Positions 14,444 through 41,757 of a DNA stretch of 64,000 nucleotides are shown here, piece by piece. The stretch spans positions 15,840,645 to 15,904,644 of the forward strand of contig OZ316893.1 in the NCBI GenBank assembly GCA_973895155.1. Direction: 5' to 3'. This DNA is from Marsupella aquatica (lineage: Eukaryota > Plantae > Marchantiophyta). Made by a program: the position numbers and the translations under genes. Under the pieces are notes generated by a model that was given only the letters and a program-made list of their open reading frames with translations, did no database searches and was not told the DNA's origin. Each line of letters opens with the position of its first letter. Position 1 is the stretch's first letter.

Positions 14444-14445
14444 TG

Positions 14446-14457
14446 TGGTATCAGAGC
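14446..14457 (+). promoter_or_regulatory. Primer binding site, tRNA-iMet
   Basis: TGGTATCAGAGC begins 2 nt after the LTR end. Confidence 0.9.
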
Positions 14458-14545
14458 GATTGCTGGCATAGACACCGGACCGGGGCCGTGCTAAGTTGGA
14501 ATCCAAAAATCTTAACGGATTTTTGTAGGGACTTAGTGCTTCAAC

Positions 14546-17260
14546 ATGCCCGGCAAGTCGACTGCGGGCAGATTCGGTCGCTGGGAACATGGCAAAAAAC
14601 ACTCGTGCAAAGAGTGGCAAGCAGGCTCCCCCACCAAGGGGAGAGCCCAAGTTCATGATGAACAAAAGGAGGATGGGTCGACTTCCCTAGACAAATGTTA
14701 CAAGCAAGATGAAGAAGACGCAACAGCCGAACCATCGACCGCTGCGACAAACAAGTCAAGTGCAGAGCGTCGTCAACTTAAAGGGAAGGAGGCAGCTGAT
14801 CCTTCAGAGGATGGGTCGGATGACTACGACTCCAACGCAACCGCAAGCGACGACAACGCTGAAGCTGAGACAGAGGAAGAGGGTCAGGACCCGGAAGAGG
14901 AGCTGATCCCAGCCTTGAGAGGGTTGAACGCGGAACCAGAGGATGATGCCGAGCCGGACATCATCGTGGATAATTTGACCAAGCAGAACCAGGATGACGC
15001 GGGTGATACCTCAGTCCCGGGAGGTCATGGTGCTCGCAAGACACGGGGGGTGTCACCAAAATCCACAAGAGAACCTAAGGACAAGCGGCCCGCAAAGGAA
15101 AGACGGTTGGAGGACCGTCCTCACACAACCCGCAAGGGCCCAGCCGTTGACGATGGTCTGGGTCCGTTGACTCAAGACCAGCGACTCATTTATGAGCAGT
15201 TGGAACACAACAAGGGGGCCCAGATTAAGTACTTACTTAGTCTGGGTAGTCAGAGTGTGACGCGCCCCGAGGGGGGAATGGTAGTTGGACGGAGTATGTT
15301 CCAAGTGAACCAGCTACCGACTCCTCCAACTTACAACGGGGCCTATGAACAAAGTGGATAAAATTTTGTGAGTTGGCTCTCCATGATGGAGATTCATCTC
15401 CAAGCGTGCGTTGAGCGCTCCACTTGGGCCACCGCAGCCGCTCCTTACCTGAAGGACTATGCCCTGACTTGGTACAAGTCATGGAAGAAGTTGAGGGAAG
15501 ACTCCTCCTTGCTGTTAACTTGGGAAAACCTGGTTGAGGGTCTCCGTGCTCATGCCACCACTAAGTACCCGGAGCGGCACGCTCAGAAATGTGTAACGGA
15601 GATGAGCTTCAGGGGTGATATCCAAAAGTTCATCACTTATTACCAAAATCAGTTGACGTATATCCCGGCGGGATAAGAGACCCTGCATACACAGCTTCAC
15701 AACTTTATCGTGAAGCTCCCGCCGTTGCTCAGGGAAAAGTTATAGGAAAAGCGTCATGAGTTCAAAATGCTTTCTGACGCCTTCGACAAGGCCACTACGT
15801 TGGTGAATAACCAACCGGACTTGGCGAAGGTGGGTGGCAAGGGATCCGAGGGGGAAGCTGGGAAAGCAAAAGGTCCCGGGAATAAGCGTAAGCAACCTGA
15901 CGGGGCGGGGGCCGGTGGTTTGGATCCCCAGCCCCGGAATGGAGAAGCTAAGTGGAACCGGAAGGCCGACAACTTCAATAAAGGAACCTCATCGGCACAA
16001 AAAGCAAAGAAGCAGGCGACCATGGAGCAGAGGCGGGCGGAAGGTTTGTGCTTCACATGTGGTGCCATGTGCCATCAAAGTAAGGATTGTTCCACGAAAG
16101 GTGGCAAGCCAAACGGAGATGGTGGAGGGCAGAAGAGCATTAAGGTAAGTATCGCTCTAACCAAACCCTTAGTAGCTGACAAGGTCCCCATAGGGGATGT
16201 CCCTGACGGGGAGAGGGCGTTGTTGCGAGAGAAGATACCTAAAGTTAAGACAATGGATCCTGAAAAACTGATTTTTGTGAATGTCAGTTCTAACGGTAAT
16301 CTGGGGGTTGCTTTGGTGGATACAAGCGCGACCACCTACTTCATAAGGAGGCAGGCGGCAACACATCTTGGGGTGGACGTGCAAGAGTTGCTACAACCAT
16401 TAGTGTGCAAGTTTGCCAACGACATGAAAGGGATAGTGTCGAGAGTGGTCCATAGACTTCGAGTAGAGGTCATAGGCGAGCAACAAAATTTTGTTAGTCA
16501 GGAGATGTTCTACGTTCTAGACGGTCTAGCCGTAGACTTCATTTTGTCGGTAGGTTATCTCAGAAAGCACAATGTTACCTTGAAACCGGGGGGTGAAGTG
16601 CTCCATTTTCCCAATAAGGGCGGTGAGCCCATCATTGTACACAAAATTACCGAAAATAAAGAAAGATTTCTTAAAGTAAGTAAAGTGTCATGGATGTCTC
16701 CGTGTGTATCGGCGAAGCAATGGTGGAAAGACTTCAAGGGTGGACATGATTGTTTCTTCTTTCATCTCCACCCAACTAAGGAGGCTGATTCGCAGCCAAA
16801 GGTCAAGTCAGCCAAGGTCGGGCCTGACTGAGGTCGAATTCCTGAAATTTTAGAGGAATTCAACGACGTGCTCTTGCAGAAGCTACTTAAGGTTTACCCC
16901 TACGGAGAGAAGTGGATCACCAAGTTGAGTTGGAGCCAGGTTCGGGTCCACAGGCTAAAGCTCCTTATTGTTTGAACCTGAACGAGCGAATGATGTTGAA
17001 GAACGCCTTGGAAGAGTTGATCGACCAAGGGTTCATTCGCCCTAGTAAGAGTCCTTACGGGGCGCGCCGTGCTATTTGTGTCCAAAAAGGATGGTACTTT
17101 GAGATTGTGCGCAGATTACCGGGCCCTCAATAAGCAGACGGTAAAGAACAAGTACCCGTTACCTTAGACATATGGATGACCTCTTTGATTGCCTCTCCGG
17201 GGCTAAGAAGTTTTCAAAGGTGGACTTGCGGTCTGGGTATTACCAGATCCGCCTGGCTAA
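14546..17260 (+). pseudogene. Gypsy gag, zinc knuckle, aspartic protease and RT N-terminus
   Basis: Motifs: YLKDYALTWY..LTWENL (gag), CFTCGAMCHQSKDC, ALVDTSATTYFI (protease), [10 protein letters not shown] and [12 protein letters not shown]. There are several stops and frameshifts. Confidence 0.9.
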
Positions 17261-19543
17261 CACTAGAAGAAACCGGCCCATTCTGAGACCCTGCCTTAAG
17301 TGACTCTAATGAGACCTTGCAAAATTTGTGACTCCTAGGTTTTGGGTGTCATTATAGTTACAAGTTGTGGACTGAGTTTTGGAGAATTCTTGGGAAGTCA
17401 TTTCTATAACTATTGGGGAAGTTGCAACTATAACTAAGTTCAGCCAACAAGAATGAAGTTGTATAAGTGACTCCCTCTACAATAGAGCGTTATATATGTA
17501 AGAGAGCCTTAGGGTTTAACACCACAATCTAACCACATTTGACCCCGCCCAACACATACCATTTAGGATATATCCTAATTTTCTTAGTTGTCAATGGGAC
17601 TAAAGGAGATGCCCTCGGGATATTGTGTGAGTACGCAACTCTACAAGGTAAGTAAAGGTCCTTGGTCAATGTCAATGCTAACAGATCTCAAATATATACT
17701 CTACATTAGAGTAGACTGAATTACAACATATGTATGCCACAAGTTTACAAGTGTTACAACATAACAAAATAATCCCAACTAGCTAGGGTCCCACAATGGC
17801 ATGCATGTAATATTAATTGGACTCATTTTTGTGTCTAAATGGGTACATTTGAAGTTATCTCCTTGGTTATCTCTAACTCTCACATATGCAAGGGCAGGTT
17901 ATTTTTACTTATTGCACGCCATGCCATGCATACATACCGTCATGTACCCCCTCCACACATTGTTCCATCTAGATTCCTTTAATTAAAGGTTCAAAATCAC
18001 CAAGAACTGGGAATGCAGCTGGAACCTCCATGTACTTGGCATGTCTACATGTTATAATTAGACATATCTGATAATGGCACCCCACACACTATGCTCATGG
18101 AATGAGCATAAGAACTTGTGACAGTCCTTACCTTAATTAATCAAGCAAGGATCTGACGGTCGTAAACTTAATCAAAGGATGATCTGACGGTTGAAAACAA
18201 ATATGGGCACATTAAACCAGGTTTAGGGTTTAATGGATTCCTTCACGCCAACTCCCATTGCGCCTTGGATTCCTTTGGATTTGCGGACGAGGAGCTGATC
18301 GCGCATTCTTTGCGAGGGAAAAAAGGGGGCAGTTTGTCGATCACTAAGGCTGAAGCTGCATTGACAAATTGCAATCCCGACTGCAATGGGAGTAGTAGGA
18401 GGCAAGAAGAGCGAGTTTAGGGTGTTGCATAGACAAAACAGAATGTGAGTCGTAGGCAACATTCAGCCATTGTATGTGTTTAGCATTGATCATAGGCACT
18501 GTGGGAGGCACTGCAGGAGGCGTTTGCCACTGCGCAAGGCACTGTAGGAGGCACTTGTTCCTTCAAGCTGGGAGAGTCAATTTGACGTTCAGCTGCAACC
18601 TGGGATCGAGAACCAGGAGCTTCTCATTGCGGTTTGGTGTGCATTTGGACTGTTCTTGCAAAGTGGGACTCCAGGCCTGGAGACATTGCATTGATCGCCT
18701 TTGGATGTACATTGGAGTCCGACTAGGAGGCTTTCAAGTGGAGCTGGGTTGGAAGTGAGTTGAAGATTGAGTTGCCATCACATTGCAATAGCGGGGGATT
18801 GTTGCTCAGCTTCACATACTGCTACGGATTACTACGCAGCTTCAGTTTGAGCGGCTTGGTGCTGCATCAGCCCATGTAAGGCTGCAATCCCCTATCTTTG
18901 CTATGTGACCTCGCGGCTGCAAGTTTGGTTGACTTCTTTGTGCTGTGAAGCTGTTTTTGACTCAGGTTCCAGCCAAGTTTCACCAGCGCAAATTTTTCTA
19001 AACATGAGTGTGGGCTACAACTGGTGAGGTGGAAGGGATAAGAAAATGCGCTACCGTCATTGACAACATCTCAACCTTTTACAGTGAGCGCTATTGACAT
19101 TCGGCCGGCTGTAAGTGTATTTCAAGCTTGACTTTAACTTGCCATCTGCATGAACCGGCTTGCAATAGATGTTGTAGCTTTTGCTTAGCTGCATTCACCT
19201 CCCAAGATGCCCCGTGACATCCAGGTTTGCACAATGAGATAATAAGGCTGAAATGATAAGGTAGTGATTGCCAATGGATAAAAAGCTTTATGAGAGTTGC
19301 TTCAACGTTCAGCTGCAAACTAGGATTAGGAACCAGGAACTTGTCGCGGCAGTCCAGCTTGTTTACTTGGAGCCGGAGCTGGAGTCAAGTTTCACATGTT
19401 TCTTGTTTAGTGACAGAGTACTTCTGAGAAATGTGACAGCCCCTGTGAGAGCTTTCGGCACCAGTGAGGTAAAGGGTGTTCTTACTCATGCAATAGTCAC
19501 TTTGACCTTCTGAGTTTCAGCAAATTGAGTTTCAAGTGCGGGC

Positions 19544-19633
19544 ACTGAGAGTTGACCTGTTTGAGCTGGGGTCACTGAGAGTTGAGCTCTTTGAGCTACG
19601 GTTACAGAGAGTTGAGCTGTTTGAGATGCGGTC
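19544..19633. repeat. 30-bp tandem repeat x3
   Basis: Units resemble ACTGAGAGTTGAGCTGTTTGAGCTGCGGTC. Confidence 0.8.
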
Positions 19634-20930
19634 TCATAAGTGAACTAGATCCTCCCCCGTGTAAACGTCTAGCATAGTCACATGTCCAAGCTTTGCTTTT
19701 GACTCTGAATATATTCACTGTCAACCATTGAAGGAGCTACGTGCATGAATTGTCTACTTATTGGGTTGTTTAGGGATTCAATATACAAAAATGACAACTT
19801 GAGTAAGGCAGTCTACGGAGGCGCGAAAGAGTCGCGAGGAGTCGAGTTCAGCTACGGCAGTATTCACTTCAGTTGTCTCAATGTGGTTGGCGTGAGCTGC
19901 AGGTGAGCTTAGCTGTGTGCACATTTCATGTAAGTCAGGTGGTCGGTGTTTTAGGCATTGCGGAACTTGATTGACCACCCCATGGCTAAGGTTTAAGGTG
20001 CGGACTACAACAAATATGTGTTGTTGCTGAAAGTGTTGGTGGTGAGCGACAACTGGTATTGTTTCAGCTAAAGGGAGCACATTGGAGCTTGTGTATCCAT
20101 GACCTGCGACCGATTGCGGTTGCCTGCTGTTACAATTGCCGAATCAATCACGCACCCAATCTTGCGGGCAGACACAACTTTGCGGGAGTGTTGAAGGTTT
20201 AGGGTGAGCAACAGCGGAGAGCTCATTGCTTGGTGGCAGGGTTGAAGGTGGATGATCGGGCTGCAAGGCCAACCGGGGACTTGTTTTGCATTGAGCGATT
20301 GCTGCGGATTGCTACGCAGCTTCAGTTAGGGCGGCTTGGTGCTACATCGGCACAGGTAAGGCTGCAATCCCCTATCGACGCGGACTCACCTCGTGACTGC
20401 AAGTATAGTTGTCTAGGTGATGTATGCATTGCGTGTTTAGGGTCTAGGTGACATCGCTGCTAAGCAAAATTTGTGAGCTGCCTAGGTCCATTGCCGAATG
20501 TTGCTTCCTTTAAATTACCTGGTGCCTGCTGTTACAATCGCCTGCTCAATCATGCACCCAATCGCCTGGAGCTCATTTGCCTGGAGCTTCATCCGTCAGA
20601 TTCAAACTGTTATTGCTGCTCTGCCCTTTTGCCATGGGTTGCCGGCCTACCGGATGCTATCAACAGATTAAGAACAAGTCATATCCTAAGTCCCGGTGTT
20701 GCAGTGATGTCCCCGACCCTAAGATGCTTTCCAAACTCATCTTTCTTGTTTCCTGTTGCTGCTGATGTATGTATGTTCTCCCCTATTTTTGCTTACAGAT
20801 TGGTCTCTCCACACTTCTTGCTTGACATGATTGTTTTGCTCCTCCCTGTATCAGAACATGCCTTGTGCCCGGCGGTGGGGTGGGGGGGTGAACAGACGAC
20901 CTTAAGGTTCACTACATTTCTAGGAACTGT

Positions 20931-21090
20931 GCATCTTTCAGCTGATTTTAGCCGCAAGTTCCCTTGCTTTCCCCTGTTTTTGCTAAGATCCCTCCCACTA
21001 ATCACATGCATCTTTCAGCTGATTTTAGCCGCAAGTTCCCTTGCTTTCCCCTGCTTTTGCTAAGATCCCTCCCCACTAATGACATGCATC
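20931..21090. repeat. 77-bp tandem duplication
   Basis: GCATCTTTCAGCTGATTTTAGCCGCAAGTTCCCTTGC... starts at 20931 and 21008. Confidence 0.85.
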
Positions 21091-22280
21091 CTTTACTTTT
21101 CTCGGTGGCCCGTGCGCCTGCCTTCCTACTTTCGTTCTTATGGACTCTCCTTAGGTTTTCATTCACCTGGTTTTGGACTTTTTGCTCCGGTGGAATCTGT
21201 CTTGACAACTTGTGTTTGTTCTAATTGTTAATATCTCAAGAGGGTCGTCAACTAAGCTGAAAGGAGTCAAAGCTAACTACAAGCTAGCAAAATAATACAG
21301 AGAATGCTCCCAAGTCGAGTCAGGAGGAAGTTACTAAAACTAGACCTTCACAACTCTCGAAACTGGAAAGTGAAATTCAGCGTGAGACACGTAGCTGAAG
21401 GCCACAAGGATAACTATATGGCCACGCTGTCCCCCATTCAAGTCCAAAGTCCTCTTCAGATTGTCTGAACTCCTATTGAATGTATTGAATAATTATTTCA
21501 TCACAGAAATTTTCAGAACAAACACGGAAGCACCAGGGGGCTGAGGATTAGGTATTGAGGCTGAAGACATTGAGGTCATAAACTAGGTGTGGTTCGGGTG
21601 ACAATGTTAGCAACTGATGCTTCTTCAGGGGAACTTCCCATGTGCAGTTTATCCACACATGATTGACTTTGGTTCTTGCTGTTTTTCTTTTGGTGTACTC
21701 TTGAGTTTGGTGTCACTCTATCCTTTCCTGTAGCCTCGAAATAGGAACACACCTGCTTAGTGGTCCCCAATCGCCCAATGATTTATAATGACTGTGTCTA
21801 GGTGATGTATGCATTGCGTGTTCATTCCAGAAGAATGAATATGTACACTTTGCACAAACCTGGACAGATTTTGAATGTTATTTATCTGAGTTTCTGTTTG
21901 TGAGCTCTGACTTGGAGCCTTAACATTTGTGTTTCTGTGGGGCTGAGCAGAGTTTGTTCAGTCTAGAAGCTGCTGTACTGAAGTGATCAGCCTCCGGCTT
22001 GGAGGTGAATCTTCAATTTTTTGTGGATCCGAGTGACTTCTGTCCAACTGAGTTTTGCTTTGTCGGGACGATTGTGTTTGGCTAAGATGCTAGATTGTGG
22101 CTTGTCTTCTTGCTCCCAGCTTGTGTATTTTCAATTAATAGAAGTTGGGAACGAAGTGATAATTGAATTTCCTTATATTAAGCATCTTCACCTAGAAACT
22201 CAATACATAAACTCCAGGATTCCCTCGGGACATAAAATGAGCCAAATTGTCTCAAAATTGGGAACCTGCACCCGCACTAC

Positions 22281-22623
22281 TCAAACAATTGTGTTGGGCT
22301 TGGTGGCCTTGTAAGTCTTCTTTAGCTTTCGCAATGGAGGTTGAATCTTGCAGTACGTCAAGGGGAACTTGATCTTTGAATCATGGAACTGCTTGGTACT
22401 TTCTCGCTTGCACAGAGAGACAGGGACTGTCGTAGTCTTCATGATCTGGATGCAAGGGAACCGAACTCTATGACAAGAAGCCATCTCATCATACATCTGC
22501 TCTGCAGCTCCGTTTCTTGTGGTATCACAATATTCCTTGTACATGTTGTGATAACCTGTACGACTCTGATACGTGGACCCAGATACCGAAGTTCTTAATT
22601 GTGGTGGGCTTCTTTTTGAAGAT
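22281..22623 (-). pseudogene. RPL18A: Captured last-exon fragment of 60S ribosomal protein L18a (eL20)
   Basis: It reads [17 protein letters not shown], then after a +1 frameshift [43 protein letters not shown]...[17 protein letters not shown]...KTYKATKPN. It begins right after a CAG acceptor. Confidence 0.93.
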
Positions 22624-23631
22624 CTGGTAGACACATTATTCAGCATTTGCTAACTTCGAAACTAGAAGGGTAACACATTAAACAACAGAGAAACTCACAA
22701 CATCCTCCTTTGGTCCTTCAGAGTCTGTACTTTGATTCTGAAGTTTGACTGAGTTTTTGTTTACTAAAAGAATGTGACTGTGTAAGAGTTCCGTTTGGCA
22801 GTGGATTGGTTGAAGCACTTCATGCTAGTGTGTTGTCCACAGCTCTTCAACCAGCTTTCGTCTTCCTTGTCTTTCACCACTTACGATGACATCAATTCAG
22901 CTAAGACCATAGAAGGTTCCAAAGCATCTAACTTGTAAAATCGCATTCTGTTACATCAAGGACTAAGGTGTTGGGTGCCAAAGGAGACAGCACAACAAAC
23001 ACGCTGAAAAGACTTCAGGACTGGGTTCAACAAGGTAGTGAAGGTGCTTAGAGCCATAGTAAGTATGCATTCTGTATCTTTCTCTATTGATGTGAGCTTG
23101 TGCATAATGGGAGTTGTAGTTGGCAAGAGTTCCAAATATGAATAGATCCAGAAGTATGTGATCATGTACTTGCTCTATAAAGTTCTGAAGATATAAGCAT
23201 TTTCTGTTAGACCAGGCAACTTGGGAGTTGGTAAGTGTCACCTGCATCTGAGGGGCTACACCGGGGCATCAGTGGAGGTTCACTTGCACAACACGACAAC
23301 CAGTGAATTTTCTCTCTGCTGCAACCTGCAAGGTGAGACTTTCGGTCTTTCTGGATGAAAAAACAGGAGTTTAATATGATTGATATACATGTCCGTCGAG
23401 AATATGGGTTTATCACCAAGCTCTTTGTCTTAGGAAACTCATAAACTCAGAATCAAATATGTACTATGCACGTTTCATGCTATGTGTATACTATGACCTG
23501 TAGTTGGAACCAAGACAATGAGTGGGAACTGATTAGTTTAGGTGGTTGCTGTTGGCGAGGCAAGTCGACCTCCTACTCACCTTGCTCATCAAAGGACGTG
23601 AACAGAGGACATCACAACGAAAGCAACACTT

Positions 23632-24081
23632 ATGGTGAGGACCCGCAACGCTGAACATGTGCGACTTGCACGCAAGGCAGAGATGTTGCGCCTTGAGTAT
23701 GTCAGACTTGGGATCCTTCCAGCCCAGTCTGCATGGTACTTTGAGTACCCTGTTGTTTCTAGGAACAACTACAGTCGGCCTCTACCTGCTTCCGTACCCT
23801 TCCCGACATCCTTGGTATTTGTGTCTCTTGTACATGACCCGCCACAAATTAGGTGCCAAGGGTGTGTACACAGTTGCCAATATGACTGTCCTGCCTGTAG
23901 GGCTTCTGGCCCAGAATTGGATGACCGTTCTCTTGGATGCCGATTTTTGCACAGAGCACAATGTATCATCTGGAACCACTCGCCATCCTGCAGTGTGCTT
24001 GGTGATGTCACTTGTCCTGCCCTCCCAGACCCCACCACCGGTGACTTTGGTGTCTACACATGTTTGGATCACATGCTCTAG
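23632..24081 (+). CDS. Cys/His-rich putative zinc-binding protein, 149 aa (CACTA cargo)
   Basis: Intact ATG-to-stop ORF containing CQGC..CQYDCPAC..CRFLHRAQC..HSPSC..C..YTCLDH, on the same strand as the downstream cargo genes. Confidence 0.5.
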   Translation: MVRTRNAEHVRLARKAEMLRLEYVRLGILPAQSAWYFEYPVVSRNNYSRPLPASVPFPTSLVFVSLVHDPPQIRCQGCVHSCQYDCPACRASGPELDDRSLGCRFLHRAQCIIWNHSPSCSVLGDVTCPALPDPTTGDFGVYTCLDHML

Positions 24082-24696
24082 AGGACCACTTGTCACACCG
24101 CATGCACAGACCAGATACCATTGACCTATAGCTTAACACTCTGACTTCAACACAGAGGATATTTACTTAAAATTTTGATGTATGAGCAATTTTGGGTCCA
24201 GGGTTTAGGGTCAACAGTACATAACTTATATCCTATTATGCCTGCACTAAGCAAAATATCCTAATTTAAGAGGCTAGCAAACTCGCATAAAAGTCTCTAT
24301 TGAAAGACTGCTTTCATGACTGCTTTAACCTGGTGAACATTGCAACGTTGAATGAATTAATGGGCCATGTGATAATATGCAAAATGATTTATGCCTCACT
24401 TATTTGTCTCAGCCACTATCATAACCTATTTAGGATGTATAAATTTCAACCCTTATGACACTGCTTCATACCAATCCTCTTCGAAGAATGCCTGTTTTAC
24501 ATGTCACGACTATTGTATGTGATTCAAATGCATGAAATGTTGTTGCAGATCTCCTTTGGTGAATCATAGCCACAATTAAAATTGAGGTGTTGGTGGAGAA
24601 ATTGTATTAGGGGATCAGTTTTGTGTGTGGGCTCAACATACCAAAAGTATGTGTGCTCTGCATCCTTGTGTGGCCATTCCAATTCATTGCAGTAGC

Positions 24697-24840
24697 AAAT
24701 GCCTTTGTACCTTAAATGCTAAATATATTTTACTTTCTGTGCAGTCTGCTAAATTGTAGAGTCTATCTAAATGCCTTTGTACCTTAAATGCTAAATATAT
24801 ATTACTTTCTGTGTAGTCTGCTAAATTGTAGAGTCTATCT
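24697..24840. repeat. 72-bp tandem duplication just upstream of the PHD ORF
   Basis: AAATGCCTTTGTACCTTAAATGCT... starts at 24697 and 24769; the copies are near-identical. Confidence 0.9.
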
Positions 24841-24851
24841 CATGCGCAGGC

Positions 24852-25532
24852 ATGGCACGGCCTAAAATTCAAGCCAAAAAGCGTGTGACAGAGGTGAGAA
24901 ACACAGGTGTACTTGGGGCAGATGCTACTAACTTCTCTGCAAGTCAGATTTTCCAGAAGGCAGCTCATTGTTGTGCCATTTGTGACGATGGTGGGGGCCT
25001 GGTCATTTGTGAGGGCCCTTGCATGAGGCATTTCCACCTCAACCCGGAGTCTGACCTTGCTGCAGAAAACAACTGTCCAGGGGTGGGCCTCCCGTCAACA
25101 CACCAGGGAGACTGGATGTGCACTGATTGTTTGGAGAAGCAGGCTAAGTGTGCACAGTGTGGGAAGTTGGGGTCCTATGAGGGCTCTGTTGATGCTGCAG
25201 CAAATGTTAGGAAATGTCCAGACCGTTTTTGTGTGAGATTTTTCTGTTTTGAGTGTTTGCCTGCTCATGCCACAGCTTGCCCACTTCATAGGTGCAAGGC
25301 ATGTGGTGAGCATGATGATGACTACTGGACTGACATAGTCCACTGTGCTAGGTGTCCCACTATGTGGCACTATCATTGCCTGAAAGATCATCAAGCAGAG
25401 GGTTATGCTTGTGACAGAGAAATCTATGATCACTCTGCACATGGTGTTGATCGATGGATATTTTATTGTCATCGCCATGCCATTGATCCTACCTCGCGCA
25501 CTCCTGTGAGAGATCACATATCTTGGTTGTGA
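24852..25532 (+). CDS. Stand-alone EDM2/NSD-type composite PHD-finger protein, 226 aa (CACTA cargo)
   Basis: CAICDDGGGLVICEGPCMRHFH..WMCTDC..CAQCGKLGS..C..FC.RFF..CPLHRCKACG..CARCPTMWHYHCL..WIFYCHRHAIDPTSRTPVRDH follows the EDM2 PHD region motif by motif, as I recall it. Confidence 0.85.
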   Translation: MARPKIQAKKRVTEVRNTGVLGADATNFSASQIFQKAAHCCAICDDGGGLVICEGPCMRHFHLNPESDLAAENNCPGVGLPSTHQGDWMCTDCLEKQAKCAQCGKLGSYEGSVDAAANVRKCPDRFCVRFFCFECLPAHATACPLHRCKACGEHDDDYWTDIVHCARCPTMWHYHCLKDHQAEGYACDREIYDHSAHGVDRWIFYCHRHAIDPTSRTPVRDHISWL

Positions 25533-26118
25533 AGCTGAACATTGTACATGCACAGTGCACCTGATGTGGATGTACTATTTTTTGAGATTGCAGAGATTCC
25601 AATTTTGAAAAGGAGTTGGGTAGGCGAGTTTATATAGGCAGCACTTATCTTGTGCTCTGGCGTCAGTGGCTGGGTACATGCCTATACAAACTTATCCTTA
25701 CAAGCCTTCTTGGAAGTATTTAGGCTGAGTGGTCATTTTCATAAACACTTTCATCACACTGCTAAATTAAAACAGGACTTCTAAGTTGTAAGCGTATAAA
25801 TTATCAGGCATGCAATTAATCAAATTGCCCTATAAGTTTGTCATTGAATGTATCCTCCTTTACAACAAAATATGTATGTGCCATGACAAGTTGGTTGCAC
25901 TTCATTTCACCACGGATATGGATTTTGTAGTATATATTCAAACAATGTCCTACATCCGTGCAGGTGCCTAGTACGTATTGTTCACATATCCCTTGTACCT
26001 ATCAAAATCGGATCTGAGCACCAGTGGGCCAGATCAACTCAAAAAGCAGGAATTTTGTTGTCCTTGTATTGTCAGGTGAACCCATTCTTCCAAAATTCAC
26101 TGTCATCACGTAGGGTGT

Positions 26119-26997
26119 GTGTACATGGAGCCTGGTAAACGTAGAAAGTGTGACCACCCAGCAGTGTTTACAGGGGTCAGAGCGATTTTGGTCCATGGCC
26201 AGCATGGGTTGACCAAAGTGCATTGGCCAACTGTACAGAAACGATTCTCTGAGCTCCATGGCACTGTAGTTCAGGACATCACTCCAGAGACTACACATGT
26301 TGTTGCAGGGACATGGCTATCAGTGATAAAGAAGTGGTCATGGTCCTACATGAATTCTGCAATTACTAAGCAAGGCCTAAAAGTAGTTGAGGCCTCTTGG
26401 ATCACAGATTCCATAGCACATAAGATTGTACAGGATACTGAGCAATATGAGTTGTGGGAGGATGAAGAAGCTAATGCATCAGCTTGGGCTGAACAAGAAG
26501 TCTGGGAAGCAAAGGCACGGCTTGCTGATCTCCAATATGGACCTGTACTCAACAAAGGACAGAGCTCTACAAGGCTGAAGAGTATGTTGGCTGAGGAGAC
26601 GAAGCAACCAACCCCCATTCTGAAAGGGCTGAGCATGGTATTTGTGGAGGCGGGAATTGGAGAGGTTAAGTGCAAAGTGTACAAGTCCACAGTGCTTGAC
26701 CTAGGTGGGACAGTGGAGGAGAATATAACAGAGGACACCACTCATGTCATTACTAAGTCATATCCCAAAGCCTGCCGCAAGTTTGGGAAGGGACACATTC
26801 GCTTTTATGTCATGTCCCATAATGTGTTTGTGGTTTCATATGCTTGGCTTGTGGAATCAGTAGCAGCTGGGAAGCGTCAAAACCCAATGGACTATGATCT
26901 TTTTGAGGCCTGGCCACGGAAGGGTCAGGATCCTTACAGAGAGGACTATGAGACAACAAGTGAGGAATGGGTCATTAGCGATTCTGAATCAGAGTGA
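26119..26997 (+). CDS. Tandem BRCT-domain protein, about 290 aa, with DNA polymerase lambda-like BRCTs (CACTA cargo)
   Basis: Two repeats: VFTGVRAILV..GTVVQDITPETTHVV..VVEASWITDSI..YEL and ILKGLSMVFVEAGI..LGGTVEENITEDTTHVI..VVSYAWLVESVAAGKRQNPMDYDL. The ORF is intact. Confidence 0.85.
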   Translation: MYMEPGKRRKCDHPAVFTGVRAILVHGQHGLTKVHWPTVQKRFSELHGTVVQDITPETTHVVAGTWLSVIKKWSWSYMNSAITKQGLKVVEASWITDSIAHKIVQDTEQYELWEDEEANASAWAEQEVWEAKARLADLQYGPVLNKGQSSTRLKSMLAEETKQPTPILKGLSMVFVEAGIGEVKCKVYKSTVLDLGGTVEENITEDTTHVITKSYPKACRKFGKGHIRFYVMSHNVFVVSYAWLVESVAAGKRQNPMDYDLFEAWPRKGQDPYREDYETTSEEWVISDSESE

Positions 26998-27430
26998 GGA
27001 GTAGTAGCATCAGTTTGGACACAAGTTTTTTTGTATAAATCAGATCATTGAAATAAATGTGATCTTTGAACTAATGTACCTTGTTATGGTTGGTGGCAGT
27101 TGGGCTTATTTTACTGTTGGCGGATTGTTGTTTCCTGCTGCCTGGGGTTGTCACTGTAAACGTACATGCAGAGGCGGTACATTTGAGGACAGCGGAGGAG
27201 GTGGTGACACCCTCCAACATTTAGAAATTTTGTGTCATTCACTTGACAATAGGTACACTACTTGCGAACCTGTTTTTTTCTTTTGGGGTGGTTTAGGGTT
27301 TGTGAGAATTTAGTACACGTTATGTTAACTCTTTTGGCAGATACAGTCAGGGATATATGGAACACAAATACCACCATTAGGCATCCTTGTTCACTGCTGT
27401 CCATGACTGCAGAGCTCCCAGCCTGTTACA

Positions 27431-30400
27431 ATGCACCCTGGTCACCACCCTCCCCAGACCCAGCCCAGGGCACAGGCACTGCCTTTGCATCATCCCACAA
27501 GGATATCACGCCATGATAATAAGCTTTGGCAGCGTGAAAGGTTACGAACCAGACTTTCAGGAGCCAGTAGGATGAGATGTCCTTGTGCAATCTGCCAAGG
27601 ATCCCGTGCCAGGGGTCTGAATGAGGTTTGGCGGCATATCGCGGTTCATGGAAGAGATCCACGACATCGAGTTTGGAATGATCCTGCAGAGGAAGATTCT
27701 TCCGACGAGGAGTGGAGGTTAGAATTTGATGCTGCCAATGCTGCAAGACGGGCAAGTGAGGTTCTGCCTGGTGCATTTGAAAATGTTGTAGCTGGTCTCT
27801 GTGGGTTGTCAGCTCTCCAACGGGATGGTGCTCAGGCAGCACCACGTGACGAAGGAATTCATGTGGAAGAGATGGTGAGAGACATCTTCCAAGACTTGGA
27901 TGCATTTCATGATGGGCTGGACAATGAAGAGGATACGGCTGCAGATGCAAGTGTGCCCCCTGTCGAAGAGCCTCTTGATGAGTTTGAGATAGGGCAGGAA
28001 ACCCCTGGGCATGATGGGATGTTTGGCTCTCCCCTGCAAATACAGGAAGGCAGGAAGTCTTTGTACCCCGGTAGCAAATGTTCTAAACTGGGATTTGTCA
28101 TCATGTTCCTGAACATTTGCGGCAACCACAATGTCCCCAACGTTTTGGTTTCTGAGTTGTTGGCATTCTTGCGAACAATTGTGCTACCAGATGGTAATAT
28201 TTTGCCCAAGAACATGTACGAGGCAAAAAGATGCATATCTAATCTTGGATTGAACTATGATTCGATCCATGCCTGTCCTGATGGGCATGTTCTTTTCAGA
28301 AAGGAGTATAAAGAATCGTTGACATGCCCTAAGTGTGGGAAGCACAGGTATCGGAACTCAGGAAAGTCTATGGTTCCCGCCAAGGTACTTCGTCATTTTC
28401 CACTCATTCCCAGACTTCAGCGGATGTTCAGAAGCCGTGCCATCTCGGAGATGATGACTTGGGCAACTGACAAGAAAAGTGATGATGGGCTACAACGACA
28501 TGCTGCAGATTCAAGGCAATGGAAACTCATAGATGAGATGTATCCCGAATTTGCTGCTGAGCCGAGGAATGTCAGACTTGGGCTGTCATTGGATGGGGTA
28601 AACCCATTTGGAGACAAGAACAACAAATTTTCATGCTGGCCTGTAACTATTTTGAATTATAACCTTCCTCCTTGGATGACTACAAAGCAATTTTTTGTTC
28701 AGATGGTCCTACTGATACCAGGGCCAGACAGTGCTGTATCTGCCAACATAGATGTGTTTCTGGCTCCCCTAGTGGAGGAATTGAGAAAGCTTTGGGAGGA
28801 AGGAGTTCTCACATATGATGTCCTACAGAGGCTTGGGAGGTTAAACCCATTCATCCTTAGAGCCATTGTCATTCTGACTATAGCTGACTACCCAGCCCAT
28901 GGGATGATATCAGGCCAAACAACAAAAGGATATTGTGCTTGTACTATCTGTGGGCGCAATGTCACCAGTGAGTACTCCAGAGCCCTGCAGAAAGTGATAT
29001 ACATGGGCCATCGTCGTTTTCTGAAGACAGATCACCCTTACAGAGAAAGACAGGCACTGATTGCACACTTTGGCAATGAGATTGAGCAACGTGGACCCCC
29101 GGCACGAGTGACCAAAGAGGAGATCAGGCAGTGGGGAGCACTGAGGGATGACTATATCAAACGAGGGGGCAGGGAAGATGGAGTGAGTGATCCAATAAAG
29201 CGATATGGTGTAAAAAGACTGAGCATATTGGACTTGGAGCTCAAGTACTGGAGGGTAAGCCTCTTGGAGTTGATGCTAATTGGGATACATGTTTTGGTTC
29301 AGAGCATGTGCATTCATTTCGAAGAGAGACTAAACTTGAGGCATTTCCTGACGCTTTTGCATTGCAACGATGCAGGAGTTTGAGCCAAGCAAACATAACA
29401 TTGATGTTATGCACATTGAAAAGAATATTTGTGAGAGTCTACTCAGATTCTTGTGTGGAGAGAAAGACACTGGTTCAGTGAGATTGGATCTTGAACAGAG
29501 GGGAATGAAACCCCATCTTTGGTTGAGGCCACATGCCCACAGAGCTGATGTGCTCTTGAAGTACCAAGCGCCCTATGTTCTGACAGACACAGAGTGGGAA
29601 CTATTTGTGCAGAGGTTGAGTTCTTTGAAGGTTCCTTCAAACTATGGCAGTGCTTTCAAGAAGCATATCATGACTAGAAAGCTTGGTAGTATGAAAAGCC
29701 ATGACTACCATATGTTGATGCAACAGGTGTTGCCTTTATGCCTGAGGGGCCTGTTGCAGAAGCCTGTTCGTACTGTGATCATGCGACTCAGTGATGTGTT
29801 TCGTCGTATTTGTGTGAAGGTTTGGGATGAAACACACTTCCCACAACTGACAGAAGATGTCGCTCAGGTGCTGTGTGACCTGGAGATTTATTTTCCTCCC
29901 GCATTTTTTGATGTCATGACCCACCTACTTGTCCATGTTGTGGAAGAGCTACACCAATTTGGGCCTGTGAGTGCTCGTTGGTTGTACCCTTTGGAACGGT
30001 ACATGAAGCTACTCAAAGGTCACGTGAGAACATATTACAAACCTGAAGCAAGCATGGCTAAAGGTTACATCAAGGATGAGACTCTGGGATTTCTGACCGA
30101 ATACATAGCACAATATGAGCATGTGAAGACCAGGGTGTGGAATTCTGATGAGGAGGAAGGGGTGGTAGGTGAAGTACTGGAAGGGGCTGCAACCACAAAG
30201 AACCTGACCATATCTATGAGAGACTTGGCACATGACTTTGTATTGCACAACACTGTGGTGATGGAACCCTGGATACAGTGAGTGCATACATGTGCTATAA
30301 TCCAGTTCATGAGCTTAAATGTTGTGTTCGTGTGGTTTTCTCCTTCAGCCTGTTCATGTTTACCCAAGCTAATGCTGTGTGGTTGTTCGTTCAGGGAGTA

Positions 30401-31160
30401 TGAGTCATTGAAGGCGGCCCATCCCATTGCAGGAACAACTTTTCCAGGTTTCATGGAGTGGATCAGAGTGGCAATTAGAGAGCATCACGAGACCCACCCA
30501 GACATGGATGCAGATGTTTACCTACTGTCTAATGCCCCTAGCCTGAAAGTGAAGACTTACAAACGGATGAGAGCATATGGGAATCACTTCCGAGTGAAGG
30601 ATGGTGACAGTGCCTACAGGGTGACGAATGACTGCGGGCTCATCACTGTATTTGAGCAACAGAGCCACAATCACGACAGGGCCTGGATGGAGATGGGATA
30701 TGTGGGAGAATTAGTTGACATATGGGCTCTGGACTATGGGGCGGTGTCCAGTCCTGTGATTCTTATGAAAGGTTCATGGGTGCGGCAGGATTGGCTTGGT
30801 AACAGGGCTACCATGAAGAGAGACAACGACGGTTTCTTGCTGGCCAATTTCAGAGGGAAATTGCCCGAATGGTCTGAGCCATTTGTGTTTCCTAGTCAGG
30901 TGGAGCAAGCTTTCTTCCTGGATGTGGAAGACTCCCCAGGTTGGCGTGTAGTGTGTCATAAACAGGCCAGGCAACGCCGGATGGAAGGATCAAACCTTGA
31001 GTTTCATTTACACTCTCATAGTGCCTTTGATCATCGGCGTTCAGACCAAGTGCCTGTAGTTCATGATAGCGGGGACTTCATTCCTGTGACAAGGGTAGAT
31101 GCATTTGCTGAAGGAGGCGAATTCAGAGATGCAGATGCCAACAGTGTGCCTGTGCCATGA
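27431..31160 (+). CDS. CACTA TnpD/Tnp2 transposase (Transposase_21, DUF4218, DUF4216); 3 exons, about 1163 aa, apparently intact
   Basis: Exons 27431-29254, 29376-30277 and 30395-31160 join in frame across GT-AG introns. Motifs: RNVRLGLSLDGVNPF, ADYPA, HNIDVMHIEKN, MKSHDYH, FPPAFFDVMTHL, RWLYPLERY and EPFVFPSQVEQAFF. Confidence 0.93.
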
Positions 31161-31317
31161 GTAATGTGAATTGTTTGCATAGACATTAGTGAGGGGAAGG
31201 ATGTGTAATAAAGTAATTCTGAAGCAACACAGATGTATGGATGGATGCCTGGTGATTGTGGTTGCATTGTGTTATACGGGGTGACCATAGATGACATGTT
31301 TTTGTGGTCCAGTAGGA

Positions 31318-34300
31318 TGGAACAGAGTGACACAGAGATGTGTGAGTATGAAAGGAAAGCTATGGAACAACGAGCATACGTGAAAGCCAAAATCGCAGAA
31401 CTGGATCTGGAAAAGGATGTGGCTGAATTGTAAGGGAACGATTCTCAACTACACCCCTCCGCTGAGTTTGTGTGACATGAATAGTTCAATGTGGCACTGA
31501 AATTGTGACTGTATTCTCATATTGGAATGTCGCAGAGCCACAGCATTTTCAAAGAAACAAAAGGAGTACGCAAGAAGGGTGACCAGCACTATCTCTGGGC
31601 CTGTGCGTCGGAGTGACAGGTTGAGCAAGAAGGTCGTACCTACAATGGCAGAATGTGGAGATGACATTGATGCTGCACAGGTGGGTGCAGACACTAGACA
31701 AGAAGATGCAGATGATGAGTATTTTCCAGAGGAAATGGATGAGGATGGGGGTTATGAAGATGAATACATTGCAGAGCAGCCCCAAAAGAAACATGTAAGT
31801 AGTTTTCCCAACAAGGTTTTGAGTTAAAAACTCTTGTTTATGTTGTGATAGACAACTAAAGGAACACTCAAAGATACTCCAACAAGATAGATCCATTACT
31901 ATTGATGAGGGGATATATATATCCCCTTGGTTACATGGTAGGCAAATGCCCTTATACTGGTCCTATGGTTAGGAGTTCTCATACTATGGTTAAGGGTTCT
32001 CGCCCTATGGTTAAGGGGTAAACTAGGGTTTACAACACTCCCCCTTGGTTAGTTTATGGAGGAGCATAAAGTAACCACATCTCTTGAACCTAGGGTATAA
32101 TCCGGTTTAGGGGTCCACCTGTGTGATGTAGCCTCATTAAAACCTCGCCGCTTTCTTCTCGAGGAAAGAGTGCTACCATCACTTATATAGGTGGTTTCCC
32201 ATATCTAATGTCCTGGTTAAGCCTTTTTGCCATGTCTTAGTTAGTGTTAATCGTATGTGCTAAGTGGGGTTATGTGAATGTTCCTAATGGGTGTCTAGTC
32301 TCCCCCTCAGCTCGTTGCCTGGTGTGCGCCTCGTGTTGTTCTTCATGTCGTTTTGCGTATTGCGCTTCGCTTCGTGTTGTGCTTTGGGTTAGTGAGGCCA
32401 AGTCGGGCGTTTTTGCGTTGGTTTGCGTTGTTTCACGTCGGGGATGTGGTGTGGCGCTCGCCGAGTGTGGTGGTCGGGCATCTGGAGGCGGCTTCATCGG
32501 GCGACAGCTTCGTCGTTGGGTAATCCTTTCGAGCTTCAGTGTTATGAGGTGGGCTTGATCGTGGACAATCTGCTCATGCCTATGCCTTCGAGGTGCGCTC
32601 TGTGCAATCCGGCTGGTAGTGGTTTCGTAAACATGTCTGCTCGATTGTCCTGAGATTTGATCCATGCAACATTGATACTTTTCCCTTGTTGTTCTTGCGT
32701 GAAGAAATACTTGGGGTCAATATGCTTGGTCCTCTCGGTCTTCAGGATTCCGTTGGTTATCTGGTCGATACACGCCTTATTGTCTTCGTAGATTGTGGTT
32801 GGCTCTGTTATCTGTGGTTTACCGGTGCTGGACCTAATATGATTGATAATGCTTCGTAGCCATACAGCTTCTCTGCACGCCTCGTATAACGCTATGATTT
32901 CCGAGTGGTTGGATGACGTTGTGGTCATTGTTTGCTTTGAACTTCGCCAAGATATTGCTGTCGTCCCCTGTAAGAACACGTACCCAGTCTGTGATTTGGA
33001 GTCCTGGGGGTCCGACAGGTAGCCGGCATCAGTGTAACCGGTAAGCGTATCGGGGCTATTCTTAGGAAAGAATAGTCCAAGGTCGATCGTCCCTTGTAGG
33101 TATCTCATGATCCTCTTGATGCCGTTCCAATGCCTGATGGTGGGCTGTGCGCTGTGTCTCGCTAAGAGACTGACGGCGAACGATATGTCAGGTCTCGTCT
33201 GGTTCGCTAGATACATAAGGGCGCCCACCGCTGATAGGTACGGTTTTTCTGATCCCAGTATGGATTCGTCTTCTTGGCGCTTCCGAAACATATCTTTGAT
33301 CGGGTCTAGAGATCTGAGTTCCATCGGGGTGGAGACAGGGTAGGATTTCTGCATGTTGAATTGATGAAGTATCTTCTGCGTGTATGTCGATTGGTAAAGG
33401 AATATGCCTGTTTCTAAGTGTTCGATCTGCAGGCCTAGGCAGTGGTTGGGTCTTCCAAGGTCCTTCATCTCGAAGACTCCTTTCAGTGTATGTATTGTGT
33501 CTTTCATCATCTGTTTAGTCCCGAATAAGTTCACATCGTCCACGTACAGTGCTAGTATCAGGACTTCGTCCATATGCTTTTTGATGAAGATGCAGGGGGC
33601 CAGTCCGCTATTTGTAAATCCGAGGGCGAGCATCTCTGTCTGGAATTTCTGATACCAGATTCTGCCGCTCTGTTTAAGTCCGTTGATGGAACGTAACACT
33701 TGGACTGTAAGTTTTGTTGTTAATTTCTTTCCTCTGGTATGCATTGCCTGTGTATTTCCACTTTGCATCAAGAGGGCCTTTGTATCCCCATCAGGTATTA
33801 TTTGGCTGATGCCCTTTTTAATCTCTGTATTCAGGTTCTGGGACGTCTCCCCCTGAATGTGCTGCTTGACCCTCTCTATCAGTTCCGGGGGGGCAGTCAT
33901 GTATATCTCAGTATCGAGTGTGCCGTAAAGGTACGCGGTTACCACGTCCATAAGGTTATTAACCAGTTTATGGTGGACTGAATGTGCTGTGAGATAGCGA
34001 TATGTAGTAGCGTCCATTACTGGTGAGTATGTTAAATCGTAGTCCCTGCCCGGGATTTGTGTGTAGCCTTTGGCTACTAGCCGGGCTCGATATCTTACTA
34101 CTATGCCTTTCTCATTTCGTTTTTTCAAGAATGTAAATCGAGAGTCGGTGTAATGTGTACCTGGTAATGCCATTTTAAATGGTCCGAATACTTGTCGCTT
34201 GATGAGGGCGTCCATCTCGGTATGTATTGCTGCTTGCCACTTTGGCCAATCTGGTTGTTTCTTTGCCTCGTTTATAGTGAGCGGATCAGGAATATCGTTG

Positions 34301-37300
34301 GTGATTTCCTGTATTACGTTATAGGCAAATTGTTCATCAATTTGGGTTGTCGGTCGTTTATATATGTTACCTGTTTGCATGTATGTGATTGACATTTCCT
34401 CGTTTTCTTCGCTCAGTGGGTCGTTTTGATTTATCGCTGTCACGTTAAGTGTGATCGCTGGTTCCAGCGCGGGTGTACCCAAGTTTGCTGCTGGAGTTTT
34501 ACGTTGGCGAGGCTGGGAGTCCTTGATCCCTGGTGGTCTGCCTCGCTTTGCTCTGGGGGCTGTTACATTGGCCGGTGTCGAGGAGGTTTGTACTCGCGAT
34601 GGCGCATTAGCTGCTAAGTTGTGGGATCTTGTGACATTTGCAGCGTCGTTAAATGAGTCTGGAATCTTTTCGAGCATTTCATGTAGGTGGAGAAGTCTTC
34701 TGACTTCTTCGTCTGCCTGCTTGGTTCTGGGGTCATTTCTGTTTTGGTCTGCTTTCCAATTTATGGGCATTTTCGTTGTGTCCTTGGATTGTGTTGATGC
34801 TGTATTCGTGAGCTGTGGGAATTGATCTTCATAAAAATGGCAGTCCTGATGTCTTGCCTTGAACAGGTCTGCCGTTGTCGGTTCAAGGTATCTAATGATC
34901 GAAGTAGAGTCAAACCCAACATAGATACCTGCATTCCGTTGGGGTCCGAGTTTTGTTCTCTTTGGTCCTAAGATAGGCACCATTACCTGGCATCCGAAAA
35001 TGCGTAGGTGGGACAGGTCCGGTGGTATGCCGAACGCCAGGTGGTATGGTGTCTTAGAGTTATATGCTGACGGTCTATATTGGATTAGTGCAGCTGCGTG
35101 AAGGATGGCATGTCCCCATGCTGATGTGGGTAAGTTTGACTTCATTAACAGTGGTCTTGCCACCATTTGAAGTCTCTTAATAACCGACTCAGCTATACCG
35201 TTCTGAAAATGAACGTGGGGAACTGGATATTGAGTATCGATGCCCGCTGCCCAGCAAAAGTCGTCGAATGTTCTTGATGTGAACTCGCCAGCTCCATCTA
35301 CTCTTAATCTTCTTGTAGGATACTCTGGGAACTGTGCTCTTAATTTAAGAATATGTGCTAAGATCCGCGCAAATGCCAAGTTGCGGGTAGATAGCAATGA
35401 AATCTGCAGCCATTTAGTTGATGAGTCGATGATTACCAGGAAATATTTGAAAGGGCCGCTCGGGGGGTCTATAGGTCCGCAGATATCTGCATTGATCTGC
35501 TCTAGGAACTGTGGTATTGAAAATATTGTTTTTGGTATTGATGGTCGTATGGTCATTTTTCCTTGTGAGCACGCTATGCAGGCTGTTTTTACCTTTGGCT
35601 TGACTGTCTTGGGGATTCCTTTGGAGTCCCTTATAATCCTGTTGTACATAGTGGTACCCGGGTGGCCCAGTCGACAGTGCCAGATGTATGTCATATCCTC
35701 TGATTCTTGGTGTATATGGAATGTTTGGATACTGGTTGCGTATAGGCCTGGGGGGATCAATGCAAATGTTTCTTTAATGGATGGCTTACCCTGTATGTCT
35801 TGTATGATCTGTAATGTCTCTGTTTTGCCCTGAGTATTCGTGCGCAGTTGGAGGTTATTGGATCTGATATCCTGGAAGCTGATGAGGTTTCGGGTTGCTT
35901 TCGGGGCATAAATTGCTGACTTCACGGTGATTTTAGTTCCTCCTGGTAGTATAAATGTGGCTCGTCCTTTGCCTTCTTCTATATGATTAAGTCCTGCTAT
36001 GGTGGTGATAGCGCGGGATGATGGGGTGATGGCCTCGAAATACTTGCTGTGTTTTAAGATAGTATGTGAGGTTCCGCTGTCGATGATGCCCGTATCGGGG
36101 TCGTCTAATGTCGGGTATTTCCAGTCAGTAAGAGAGGTATGTACTTCTATCTGTTCTTGTGTTTCTTCTCTCTGAGAGGCAATCAATTCTTCTTCTATCT
36201 CCATATAATGTCCTTGGGGGTTTTGTCTGGACTTATTTCTGTCGTTTATGTATCTGTGGGCCTCTTGTTCTGTGGCTGCACATGCGTTTCTAATGTGGCC
36301 AATTTTGCCACATCGGTAACACATTTTCTGGGAATTGTTTGCAGTGTCGTATTGGTTGCTTCGTCCTCTTCCTCTATTATTCATGGTGCCTTTGCGCCAC
36401 GTGTTATTGGATCCGGAGGGTCGGTTATAAGGTTTGCCTTGTCCTCTGAATTGATTTCTCCCGCCCCTGAATTGGTTTCTTCCGCCTCTGAATTGAGTTC
36501 GTCCGCCCCGGTAATTTCCTCGTTGTTTGTCTTCATAATTGGTGTAGTGGGTTTCAGGTCGATGTGGTGGGGGGTCTGATCCTGCTGGGCGCTTTCTGGC
36601 GTTTTGCAAGGCCACGATCTGTTGCTTCTCTTCCACAAGTAAGTGAGCAATCAGATCTGAGTACTTAGTGAAACGCATGTTCCTATATTGTGTACCTAAT
36701 GTGATATTAGATTCAGGGAATGTCGATAGTGTCTTATCGATTCTATCTATGTCATTTATTGGATGTCCACACATTTCTAATTGAGATGTAATTCTGCACA
36801 GTGCGCTATTGTAATTGGCAATTGTGGTGTGGTCCATGACGCGCAGGTTATGCCAATCCCTTCTTGCCTCTGGGAGCCATATCTCCCTCATATGATCAAA
36901 TCGGGCTTTGAGGAGATCCCATAGTTTTCTTGGATTAATTTCGTTCATATACTCATTCTTTAGTTGAGGGGTTAGATGTTGCCTGAGTAGAAACGCTGCC
37001 TTAGCCTTTTGTTTGAGCGTGACATCGATGTCGGTATCTAAGGTGTCTTCAAGGTCTTGTGATGTAAAGTAAGTTTCGACATCTGTGATCCACGTCAAAT
37101 AGTTGGATCCGTCGACTTTAAGTGCTGGCCATAATAATTTTTCGACTGTATTCATTATTCGGGATGTCAGTTGATTTAAGAACTTTGGTGAAGATTGAAT
37201 CGAGTGAAGTATCTCGATTGTACAATTGACCGGTTGGAAGCTTGTATATGGAGCTGAGGGAGCTTTCAATCATGCCAATAAAGTATTAGTCCTTTGGACT

Positions 37301-41720: not shown

Positions 41721-41757
41721 TTGCGGTCTCAGTTCACCTCAGATTCTTCTAGTGTAA

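Follow-up and report, generated by a model that had tools for sequence, protein, structure and literature searches.

Organisation of the element and its accessory genes

The window analysed here, a stretch of 64,000 nucleotides (nt) from contig OZ316893.1 of the liverwort Marsupella aquatica (GCA_973895155.1), harbours a CACTA (En/Spm) transposon which, in addition to its transposase genes, carries three open reading frames (ORFs) for putative accessory proteins. ORF1 encodes a Cys/His-rich protein, ORF2 a predicted stand-alone PHD cassette of the type found in plant EDM2 (ENHANCED DOWNY MILDEW 2), and ORF3 a protein with two BRCT domains. Sequence comparisons indicate that this three-gene accessory cassette is real and selected. 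As an earlier note on this DNA had stated, and as the coordinates confirm, the three ORFs are intact, co-oriented, about 0.6-0.8 kb apart and located ahead of the transposase gene TnpD (Table 1). The spacers measure 770 nt between ORF1 and ORF2, 592 nt between ORF2 and ORF3, and 433 nt between ORF3 and the ATG of TnpD at 27431. T-rich YAG acceptor-like sites were found upstream of ORF2, ORF3 and TnpD; therefore the term intronless, used in the earlier note, holds for the coding parts only, and spliced leaders are possible. Among the listed joints in contigs from eight runs, no clean GT-AG skip was detected. A 72-nt tandem duplication at 24697-24840, directly before ORF2, doubles an acceptor-like site.

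The element ends in 11-bp terminal inverted repeats (TIRs) and is flanked by a 3-bp target site duplication (TSD), TAA, at 17258-17260 and 41755-41757. The reverse transcriptase (RT) frame of the gypsy element that it interrupts is continuous across the insertion site. The TIRs, the TAA on both sides and the read-across of the gypsy RT identify the ORF1-ORF3 cassette as internal cargo of an 18.6-kb CACTA. AGTCAY-type repeats are 7-19 times denser at the ends (13 per kb in the left 300 nt and 37 per kb in the last 355 nt) than internally (1.9 per kb). With CACTA TIRs, a 3-bp TSD, TnpD, a TnpA-like gene and subterminal repeats, the element belongs to the CACTA/En-Spm group.

TnpD possesses the domains Transposase_21 (E 1e-69), Transpos_assoc, DUF4218 and DUF4216. 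In the predicted two-intron GT-AG model the single stop is terminal, the DGVNP, ADYPA, CxxC and DVMHIEKN motifs are in frame, and the catalytic D, D, CxxC and E motifs all lie inside the 1162-amino-acid (aa) product. TnpD is thus intact, as the earlier note had it, as a predicted two-intron gene and not as one single ORF. The TnpA-like gene has a Transposase_24 match below the cut-off (E 8e-5) at 38960-39391, and a rough model allows an open GT-AG exon chain. The element also carries a fragment of the gene for ribosomal protein L18a (PF01775, E 3e-18), broken by a frame shift on its 5' side. No credible Pfam match was obtained for the 47 other frames of at least 50 aa in the 5' region.

Table 1. 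Positions of the features in and around the CACTA element
Feature	Position	Strand	Remarks
ORF1	23632-24081	+	149 aa, ATG-to-stop
ORF2	24852-25532	+	226 aa, ATG-to-stop
ORF3	26125-26997	+	290 aa, ATG-to-stop
TnpD transposase	27431-29254, 29379-30277, 30395-31160 (predicted exons)	+	1162 aa
TnpA-like multi-exon gene	31233..40899	+	exon borders approximate
Ribosomal protein L18a fragment	22281..22646	-	broken, antisense
CACTA (En/Spm) element	17261..41754	+	24,494 nt; 18,618 nt minus the nested copia
Left TIR	17261..17271	+	CACTAGAAGAA; subterminal AGTCAY-type repeats next
Right TIR	41744..41754	-	complement of CACTAGAAGAA; dense subterminal AGTCAY-type repeats just before
Older damaged gypsy	12970..46143 (outer limits approximate)	+	CACTA sits in its RT
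Recent copia	31841..37711	-	inside predicted TnpA intron

Conservation of the accessory genes

The stretch was present, whole or in part, in nine runs from seven studies. The copy in the window is young: compared with seven long, nearly identical contigs of run X1, which is possibly the source sample, it shows 15 differences over 3320 nt; an eighth listed X1 contig is a diverged copy. Because of this young age, the intactness on which the earlier note had relied is weak evidence by itself, and the case for selection is carried by other observations.

Relatives of the same length were found for all three products: five for ORF2 (37-82% identity), two for ORF3 (54-60%, in two clusters) and two for ORF1 (55-57%, with the same start motif). 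In neutral simulations, which flatter this comparison since protein databases hold open frames by construction, an open frame survived in none of 1500 runs for either ORF3 or, at 38% identity, ORF2; the share was 0.3% for ORF2 at 53% identity and 4.9% for ORF1. Cys and His residues of ORF2 are invariant at 24 of 38 positions in six sequences, compared with 28 of 188 for other residues (p 4e-9). For ORF3, invariant positions account for 100 of 198 in the BRCT cores and 25 of 92 elsewhere (p 1e-4). The label zinc-rich, given to ORF1 in the earlier note, agrees with its 10 Cys and 6 His, but these residues are not conserved distinctly better (10 of 16 invariant, 7 Cys and 3 His) than the others (60 of 133; three sequences, p 0.15).

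Copies 80-99% alike, with many variants across several runs, were compared for insertions and deletions (indels) and substitutions. One comparison lists eight indels, seven in spacer and one in frame; in the other, which contains X1, the 12 listed of 131 rows include 11 within the cassette, all of them in spacers. After clustering, the avoidance of the ORFs has p 0.008 and 0.002, respectively. The listed substitutions represent 40 of 1464 and 40 of 176 places, and among them 3 of 3 in ORF1 and 4 of 5 in ORF2 are synonymous, against a neutral expectation of about 0.27 (p 6e-4, pooled after the fact). The L18a fragment, with none of its five listed variant codons synonymous, is a decayed passenger and serves as an internal control in the same element.

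The diverged same-length relatives, the avoidance of the ORFs by indels, the invariant ligands and cores and the broken L18a fragment together point to purifying selection on ORF1-ORF3, which is firmly indicated for ORF2, has good support over long times for ORF3 and moderate support for ORF1. One observation weighs against it: the listed ORF3 variants are synonymous in 5 of 17 cases, which equals the neutral share (p 0.48). Nonetheless, 7 of the 11 changed ORF3 codons among the listed variants lie outside the BRCT cores (p 0.03), and no gap occurs along a 768-nt piece of ORF3 that carries 39 substitutions. The claim of the earlier note that the accessory genes are selected, and neither decaying nor recently captured, is therefore upheld by the diverged relatives, the spared frames and the low identity to host proteins given below. 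Disruption combined with neutral variation, or near-identity to host exons, had been named beforehand as telling against it; neither was found for ORF1 and ORF2, and for ORF3 the recent variants are near neutral.

Collinearity of other copies was seen piecewise in short contigs, and no contig spans the cassette together with TnpD. Summed contig depth over 23600-27000 (X1-X3 and X6), which is not a copy number, is several-fold higher over ORF1 and ORF2 than over ORF3 and TnpD. This hints that ORF1-ORF2 may also travel in other derivatives.

ORF2 as a stand-alone EDM2-type PHD cassette

Pfam matches of ORF2 to NSD/EDM2-type PHD families lie slightly below the cut-offs. ORF2 is 30% identical over 210 aa to a full-length EDM2-type protein (E 1e-24), including a shared terminal TPVRDH motif, whereas the match to NSD2 reaches only E 0.011. 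A profile search of 1.84 billion representatives gave 564 matches at E <=0.001, with the short family of ORF2 ranking first, followed by proteins with RFD and PHD domains; two out of ten checked are named EDM2, and the rest are unnamed plant proteins. By these matches ORF2 represents the plant EDM2 PHD cassette without the other domains of that protein (hereafter mini-EDM2).

Similar to EDM2, ORF2 possesses three linked atypical PHD units, the ligand spacing, a C-terminal TPxRDH and an acidic residue at the H3R2-contact position. It differs in having no RFD, methyltransferase-like or other domain, in its intron-free coding sequence and in its location inside a transposon; the stop codon comes directly behind the cassette, and the five close relatives all end likewise, to within 8 aa. 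Members of the family keep the zinc ligands but have a shortened PHD2, and a conserved His motif takes the place of the acidic arm ahead of PHD1; ORF2 lacks about 20 aa of PHD2 and has Cys in place of one His ligand. Asp or Glu within six residues before the first Cys was found in 0 of 17 family members and in all 95 pattern-matching proteins out of 109 of the host type. His39 of ORF2 occupies the position of AIRE D297, so that the acidic residue is missing there, and Glu54 (Asp in the five close relatives) that of AIRE D312. In AIRE PHD1, D297 is reported to bind H3K4 and D312 to bind H3R2, and the residue matching the lost acidic arm to be required for strong H3 binding (PMC2261226). The designation of ORF2 as a histone reader in the earlier note can be narrowed to the EDM2 cassette, and a residue class that reads H3K4 is lost.

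In the careful tree (28 rows of 135, with the long-branch sequences P0004 and P0157 and the near-copy P0001 excluded), a branch with 100/100 support divides the short family from all other sequences. The stem of the family is long and its interior deeply diverse, and no single sister emerged among the host proteins. The best identity of ORF2 among the 109 long host-type proteins, which do not include the host's own genome, is 28-33%. These data indicate that the family is old and separate from host EDM2. A liverwort origin of ORF2 was hinted at by a quick tree made from an unfinished search and was unsupported in the careful tree.

An EDM2-like clade of liverworts (P0016, P0019, P0021, P0027 and P0032) lacks the methyltransferase-like region, its proteins ending soon after the PHD cassette. 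EDM2-like proteins with only PHD units also occur in grasses (Triticeae and Eleusine; clusters P0035, P0037 and P0045, L002-L007). The grass proteins lie on branches separate from the ORF2 family, and thus the cassette was released on more than one occasion.

No EDM2 cassette was found among the PDB matches to ORF2. The metagenome scan detected 11 loci, corresponding to EDM2-like plant proteins and unrelated PHDs, and no close member of the ORF2 family. Viral scans yielded 0 of 128 and 0 of 42 candidates, and the prokaryote scan 1 weak match in 20, judged to be chance.

ORF3 and ORF1

ORF3 encodes two BRCT domains (PF00533, above the cut-off, E 1.6e-13) at approximately 14-111 and 164-263, which are 24% identical to each other and separated by a 52-aa linker, and an acidic tail. 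By its two BRCT folds ORF3 can be compared with the tandem BRCT proteins BRCA1 and Rtt107 and the single-BRCT Pol X family, from which it differs as a stand-alone protein with this linker and no canonical phosphopeptide pocket. Tandem BRCTs of the BRCA1 type bind phosphopeptides with a Ser/Thr-Gly and Lys pocket and have a short linker. In weak alignments the pocket is not kept in ORF3, with His/Phe/Tyr in BRCT1 and Ala/Lys/Glu in BRCT2. A donor gene for the BRCTs was not found, as the PDB matches are generic (E 1e-4 or worse) and the Atlas scores remain below 0.9; the predicted structure model has a predicted local distance difference test (pLDDT) score of 35. BRCT2 may resemble the BRCT of plant Pol lambda; no plant Pol lambda sequence was among the matches. 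The role of DNA-repair adaptor, given to ORF3 in the earlier note, is thus a lead.

No family or fold matching ORF1 was found in Pfam, Atlas, Foldseek or VIA (the structure model has a pLDDT of 60, and the best Z was 3.7); this is not proof of a new fold. A second frame of 155 aa overlaps ORF1 at 23657-24124, but it is the frame of ORF1 that relatives and synonymous variants follow, and the alternative was therefore rejected.

Possible functions of the accessory genes

Among five readings, the one ranked first, although held tentatively and at somewhat less than even probability, is that of a CACTA with three conserved accessory genes, in which mini-EDM2 would act as a counter-silencing or read-through factor for the element. 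The accessory genes would be kept through selection on the transposon. On the element, mini-EDM2 would bind nucleosomes of heterochromatin and read H3K4 in an altered way; by recruiting the ASI1-AIPP1-EDM2 machinery of the host, or by competing with it, it would allow transcripts to extend to TnpD and TnpA. The twin BRCT protein would be an adaptor for protein interactions in its own right, with end-joining where the element excises or inserts as a possible task, and ORF1, of the same lineage, would encode a small zinc protein. The three proteins probably act as separate accessories and not as one complex; the proposal of the earlier note that they form one unit joining chromatin reading to break repair is not supported, and the BRCA1-type phosphopeptide-pocket residues are not kept.

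Host EDM2 is reported to bind H3K9me2-marked chromatin and to promote full-length transcripts, and COPIA4 transcripts to be lost in edm2 (PMC7529245, PMC3632883, PMC5364540). Together with ASI1/IBM2 and AIPP1/EDM3 it is described as suppressing proximal polyadenylation (PMC7529245, PMC3632883, PMC5364540, PMC10241880). Spm is reported to be activated by TnpA through demethylation of the element ends while H3K9me persists (10.64898/2026.08.24.746577), a setting where a read-through factor would pay. In the window, TnpD and TnpA are located 10-23 kb from the 5' end of the element. The role of host EDM2, the activation of Spm under persisting H3K9me and this distance favour counter-silencing or read-through as the function of mini-EDM2. 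An extended version, where a CACTA lineage of ancient date acquired the heterochromatin-reading EDM2 core, rewired its histone specificity and forces its own silenced body to be transcribed at full length, with a private end-joining BRCT adaptor, is rather doubtful. The part of that claim by which mini-EDM2 would be the first transposon-encoded counter-silencing factor using a histone reader and RNA 3'-end processing is open to the same degree of doubt.

Several points weigh against a counter-silencing role. The RFD and methyltransferase-like domains of EDM2 are absent from ORF2. Since none of the 17 family members has the acidic arm and the matching AIRE residue is needed for strong binding, histone binding by ORF2 may be weak or absent; by its sequence, ORF2 likely still meets the H3 tail, though differently from the host cassette. 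Many more distant members of the ORF2 family look truncated or frameshifted. All members checked stem from unannotated assemblies, and both features fit, we infer, transposon copies. Host EDM2 is also reported to repress some elements, such as Mu1 (PMC7529245, PMC3632883, PMC5364540, PMC10241880).

In a transpososome module, clearly less probable than counter-silencing, TnpD and TnpA would be steered by the PHD cassette to a certain type of chromatin, and the breaks would be passed by the BRCT pair to host repair, analogous to the RAG2 PHD serving RAG1. All genes are co-oriented, and the acceptor-like sites could place them in one spliced transcript family; a reader to which the H3K4 state makes no difference would be consistent with the lost H3K4-reading arm. 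CACTA and RAG1 transposases are reported to have motifs in common (PMC12730594), and the Arabidopsis Pol lambda BRCT to bind XRCC4 and Lig4, with Pol lambda implicated in excision-site repair (PMC4444747). However, the missing BRCT donor, the Ser and Lys of the BRCA1 pocket not kept in ORF3, and the known role of EDM2 in RNA processing and not in integration speak against such a module.

It is unlikely that the genes, once selected, are now relaxed or inert cargo whose open frames reflect a recent burst from one founder. The young age of the window copy relative to the X1 contigs and the near-neutral ORF3 variants would agree with such a burst, and accessory proteins of Arabidopsis transposable elements (TEs) are reported to be under relaxed selection (PMC13547354). 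In copies as similar as those compared here, however, the listed indels avoid the ORFs, the listed variants of ORF1 and ORF2 are mostly synonymous, and the changes in ORF3 lie mostly outside the BRCT cores, with the gap-free piece as a further sign.

Less probable still is a genome-wide decoy, in which mini-EDM2 would act not on its own element but on the host, poisoning either the EDM2 pathway or a different silencing reader. Readers without effector domains, such as mini-EDM2, are the usual form of dominant negatives, and the family is far diverged from host EDM2 with a different N-terminal arm fixed. The reported promotion of silencing marks at Mu1 by host EDM2 would also agree with a decoy, but loss of EDM2 is reported to lower heterochromatic transcripts, which would be harmful to a long element.

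That host exons were passively captured in recent times, or that host genes lie by chance between two CACTA ends, is very improbable: CACTA elements are reported to pick up host fragments (PMC8978399, PMC13317346), and this one carries the L18a fragment, but ORF2 has low identity to the host-type proteins compared, its family is a single long, well-supported branch with deep internal diversity and no checked member from an annotated genome, and many variant copies occur in several runs.

Comparison with known systems

Similar to maize En/Spm and Arabidopsis EN/SPM, the element possesses CACTA termini, a 3-bp TSD, subterminal repeats, a four-domain TnpD and a downstream TnpA-like gene, and it differs in the three extra conserved genes between its 5' end and TnpD. 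Extra domains described in plant CACTAs comprise Peptidase_C48/Ulp1, Transposase_24, SANT, NDX-B and a few others (PMC8978399, PMC13547354); the terms PHD and BRCT are absent from the main texts of these two papers. Accessory genes reported for DNA transposons include Ulp1, VANC, the fungal EnSpm TET/JBP and the NDX-B of EN/SPM (PMC8978399, PMC13317346, PMC12730594, PMC13547354).

ORF2 resembles VANC and Kaonashi of VANDAL elements, TnpA of Spm and the fungal EnSpm TET/JBP in being an accessory gene derived from host chromatin proteins on a DNA transposon, and by analogy it is plausibly carried to escape silencing. These proteins act on DNA methylation, whereas ORF2 would putatively work as a reader of histone tails with a link to RNA processing. 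As in Pack-CACTA and Pack-MULE elements, host-derived sequence is present, and the L18a fragment fits this description; ORF1-ORF3, in contrast, are whole, old and co-oriented, with signs of purifying selection. In titles and abstracts, with Repbase, most subscription papers and supplementary TE tables, where the family may already be listed, not covered, no transposon-borne EDM2 derivative was found. Likewise, no literature match joined BRCT with CACTA or another DNA transposon, Repbase and supplements not being covered.

Nested elements and other features of the window

The window contains a nest of three levels, with the copia inside the CACTA and the CACTA inside the gypsy. The LTR (long terminal repeat) segments of the gypsy are 93-97% identical and 31.7 kb apart, and pieces of protease, RT/RNase H and integrase are present. 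The copia has 197-nt LTRs that are 100% identical, the TSD GTTTA and an open 1537-aa polyprotein. The CG observed/expected ratio is 0.22-0.47 across the CACTA, which is thus depleted, compared with 0.80 in the copia and 0.85 in the 3' part of the gypsy.

A fragmented gene at 7800-12850 (-), with an ORF at 8341-8946, ends in a Pfam N6_N4_Mtase match slightly below the cut-off (E 9e-6). Eight copies of a TAGCGCCAGGCGCTA-like palindrome, out of 14 in total, occur between or beside the frames of this gene; the six others are located at 1453, 7835 and 52.8-58.9 kb. The gene possibly represents a transposon with a DNA methylase domain of bacterial type. At 1-747 (-) and 50962-54535 (+) lie two related, disrupted copies (73% alike) of a gene that has Cys/His motifs and gives no Pfam match; they probably belong to another DNA transposon. 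A decayed long interspersed nuclear element (LINE) at 57900-62320 (+) retains endonuclease and reverse transcriptase pieces.

Implications

The known counter-silencing proteins of plant transposons act on DNA methylation, and EDM2 has so far been studied as a host device for tolerating intronic transposons. If the counter-silencing reading is true, a transposon with its own cut-down EDM2 would represent a reverse borrowing, and the 226-aa protein would be a natural probe for mark reading by the EDM2 PHDs and for the recruitment of RNA-processing factors. Such a transposon would further account for the expression, under persisting H3K9 methylation, of genes that lie far from the 5' end of a 19-kb element. 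If only the selection result holds, ORF1, ORF2 and ORF3 would be three new accessory gene families for CACTA elements.

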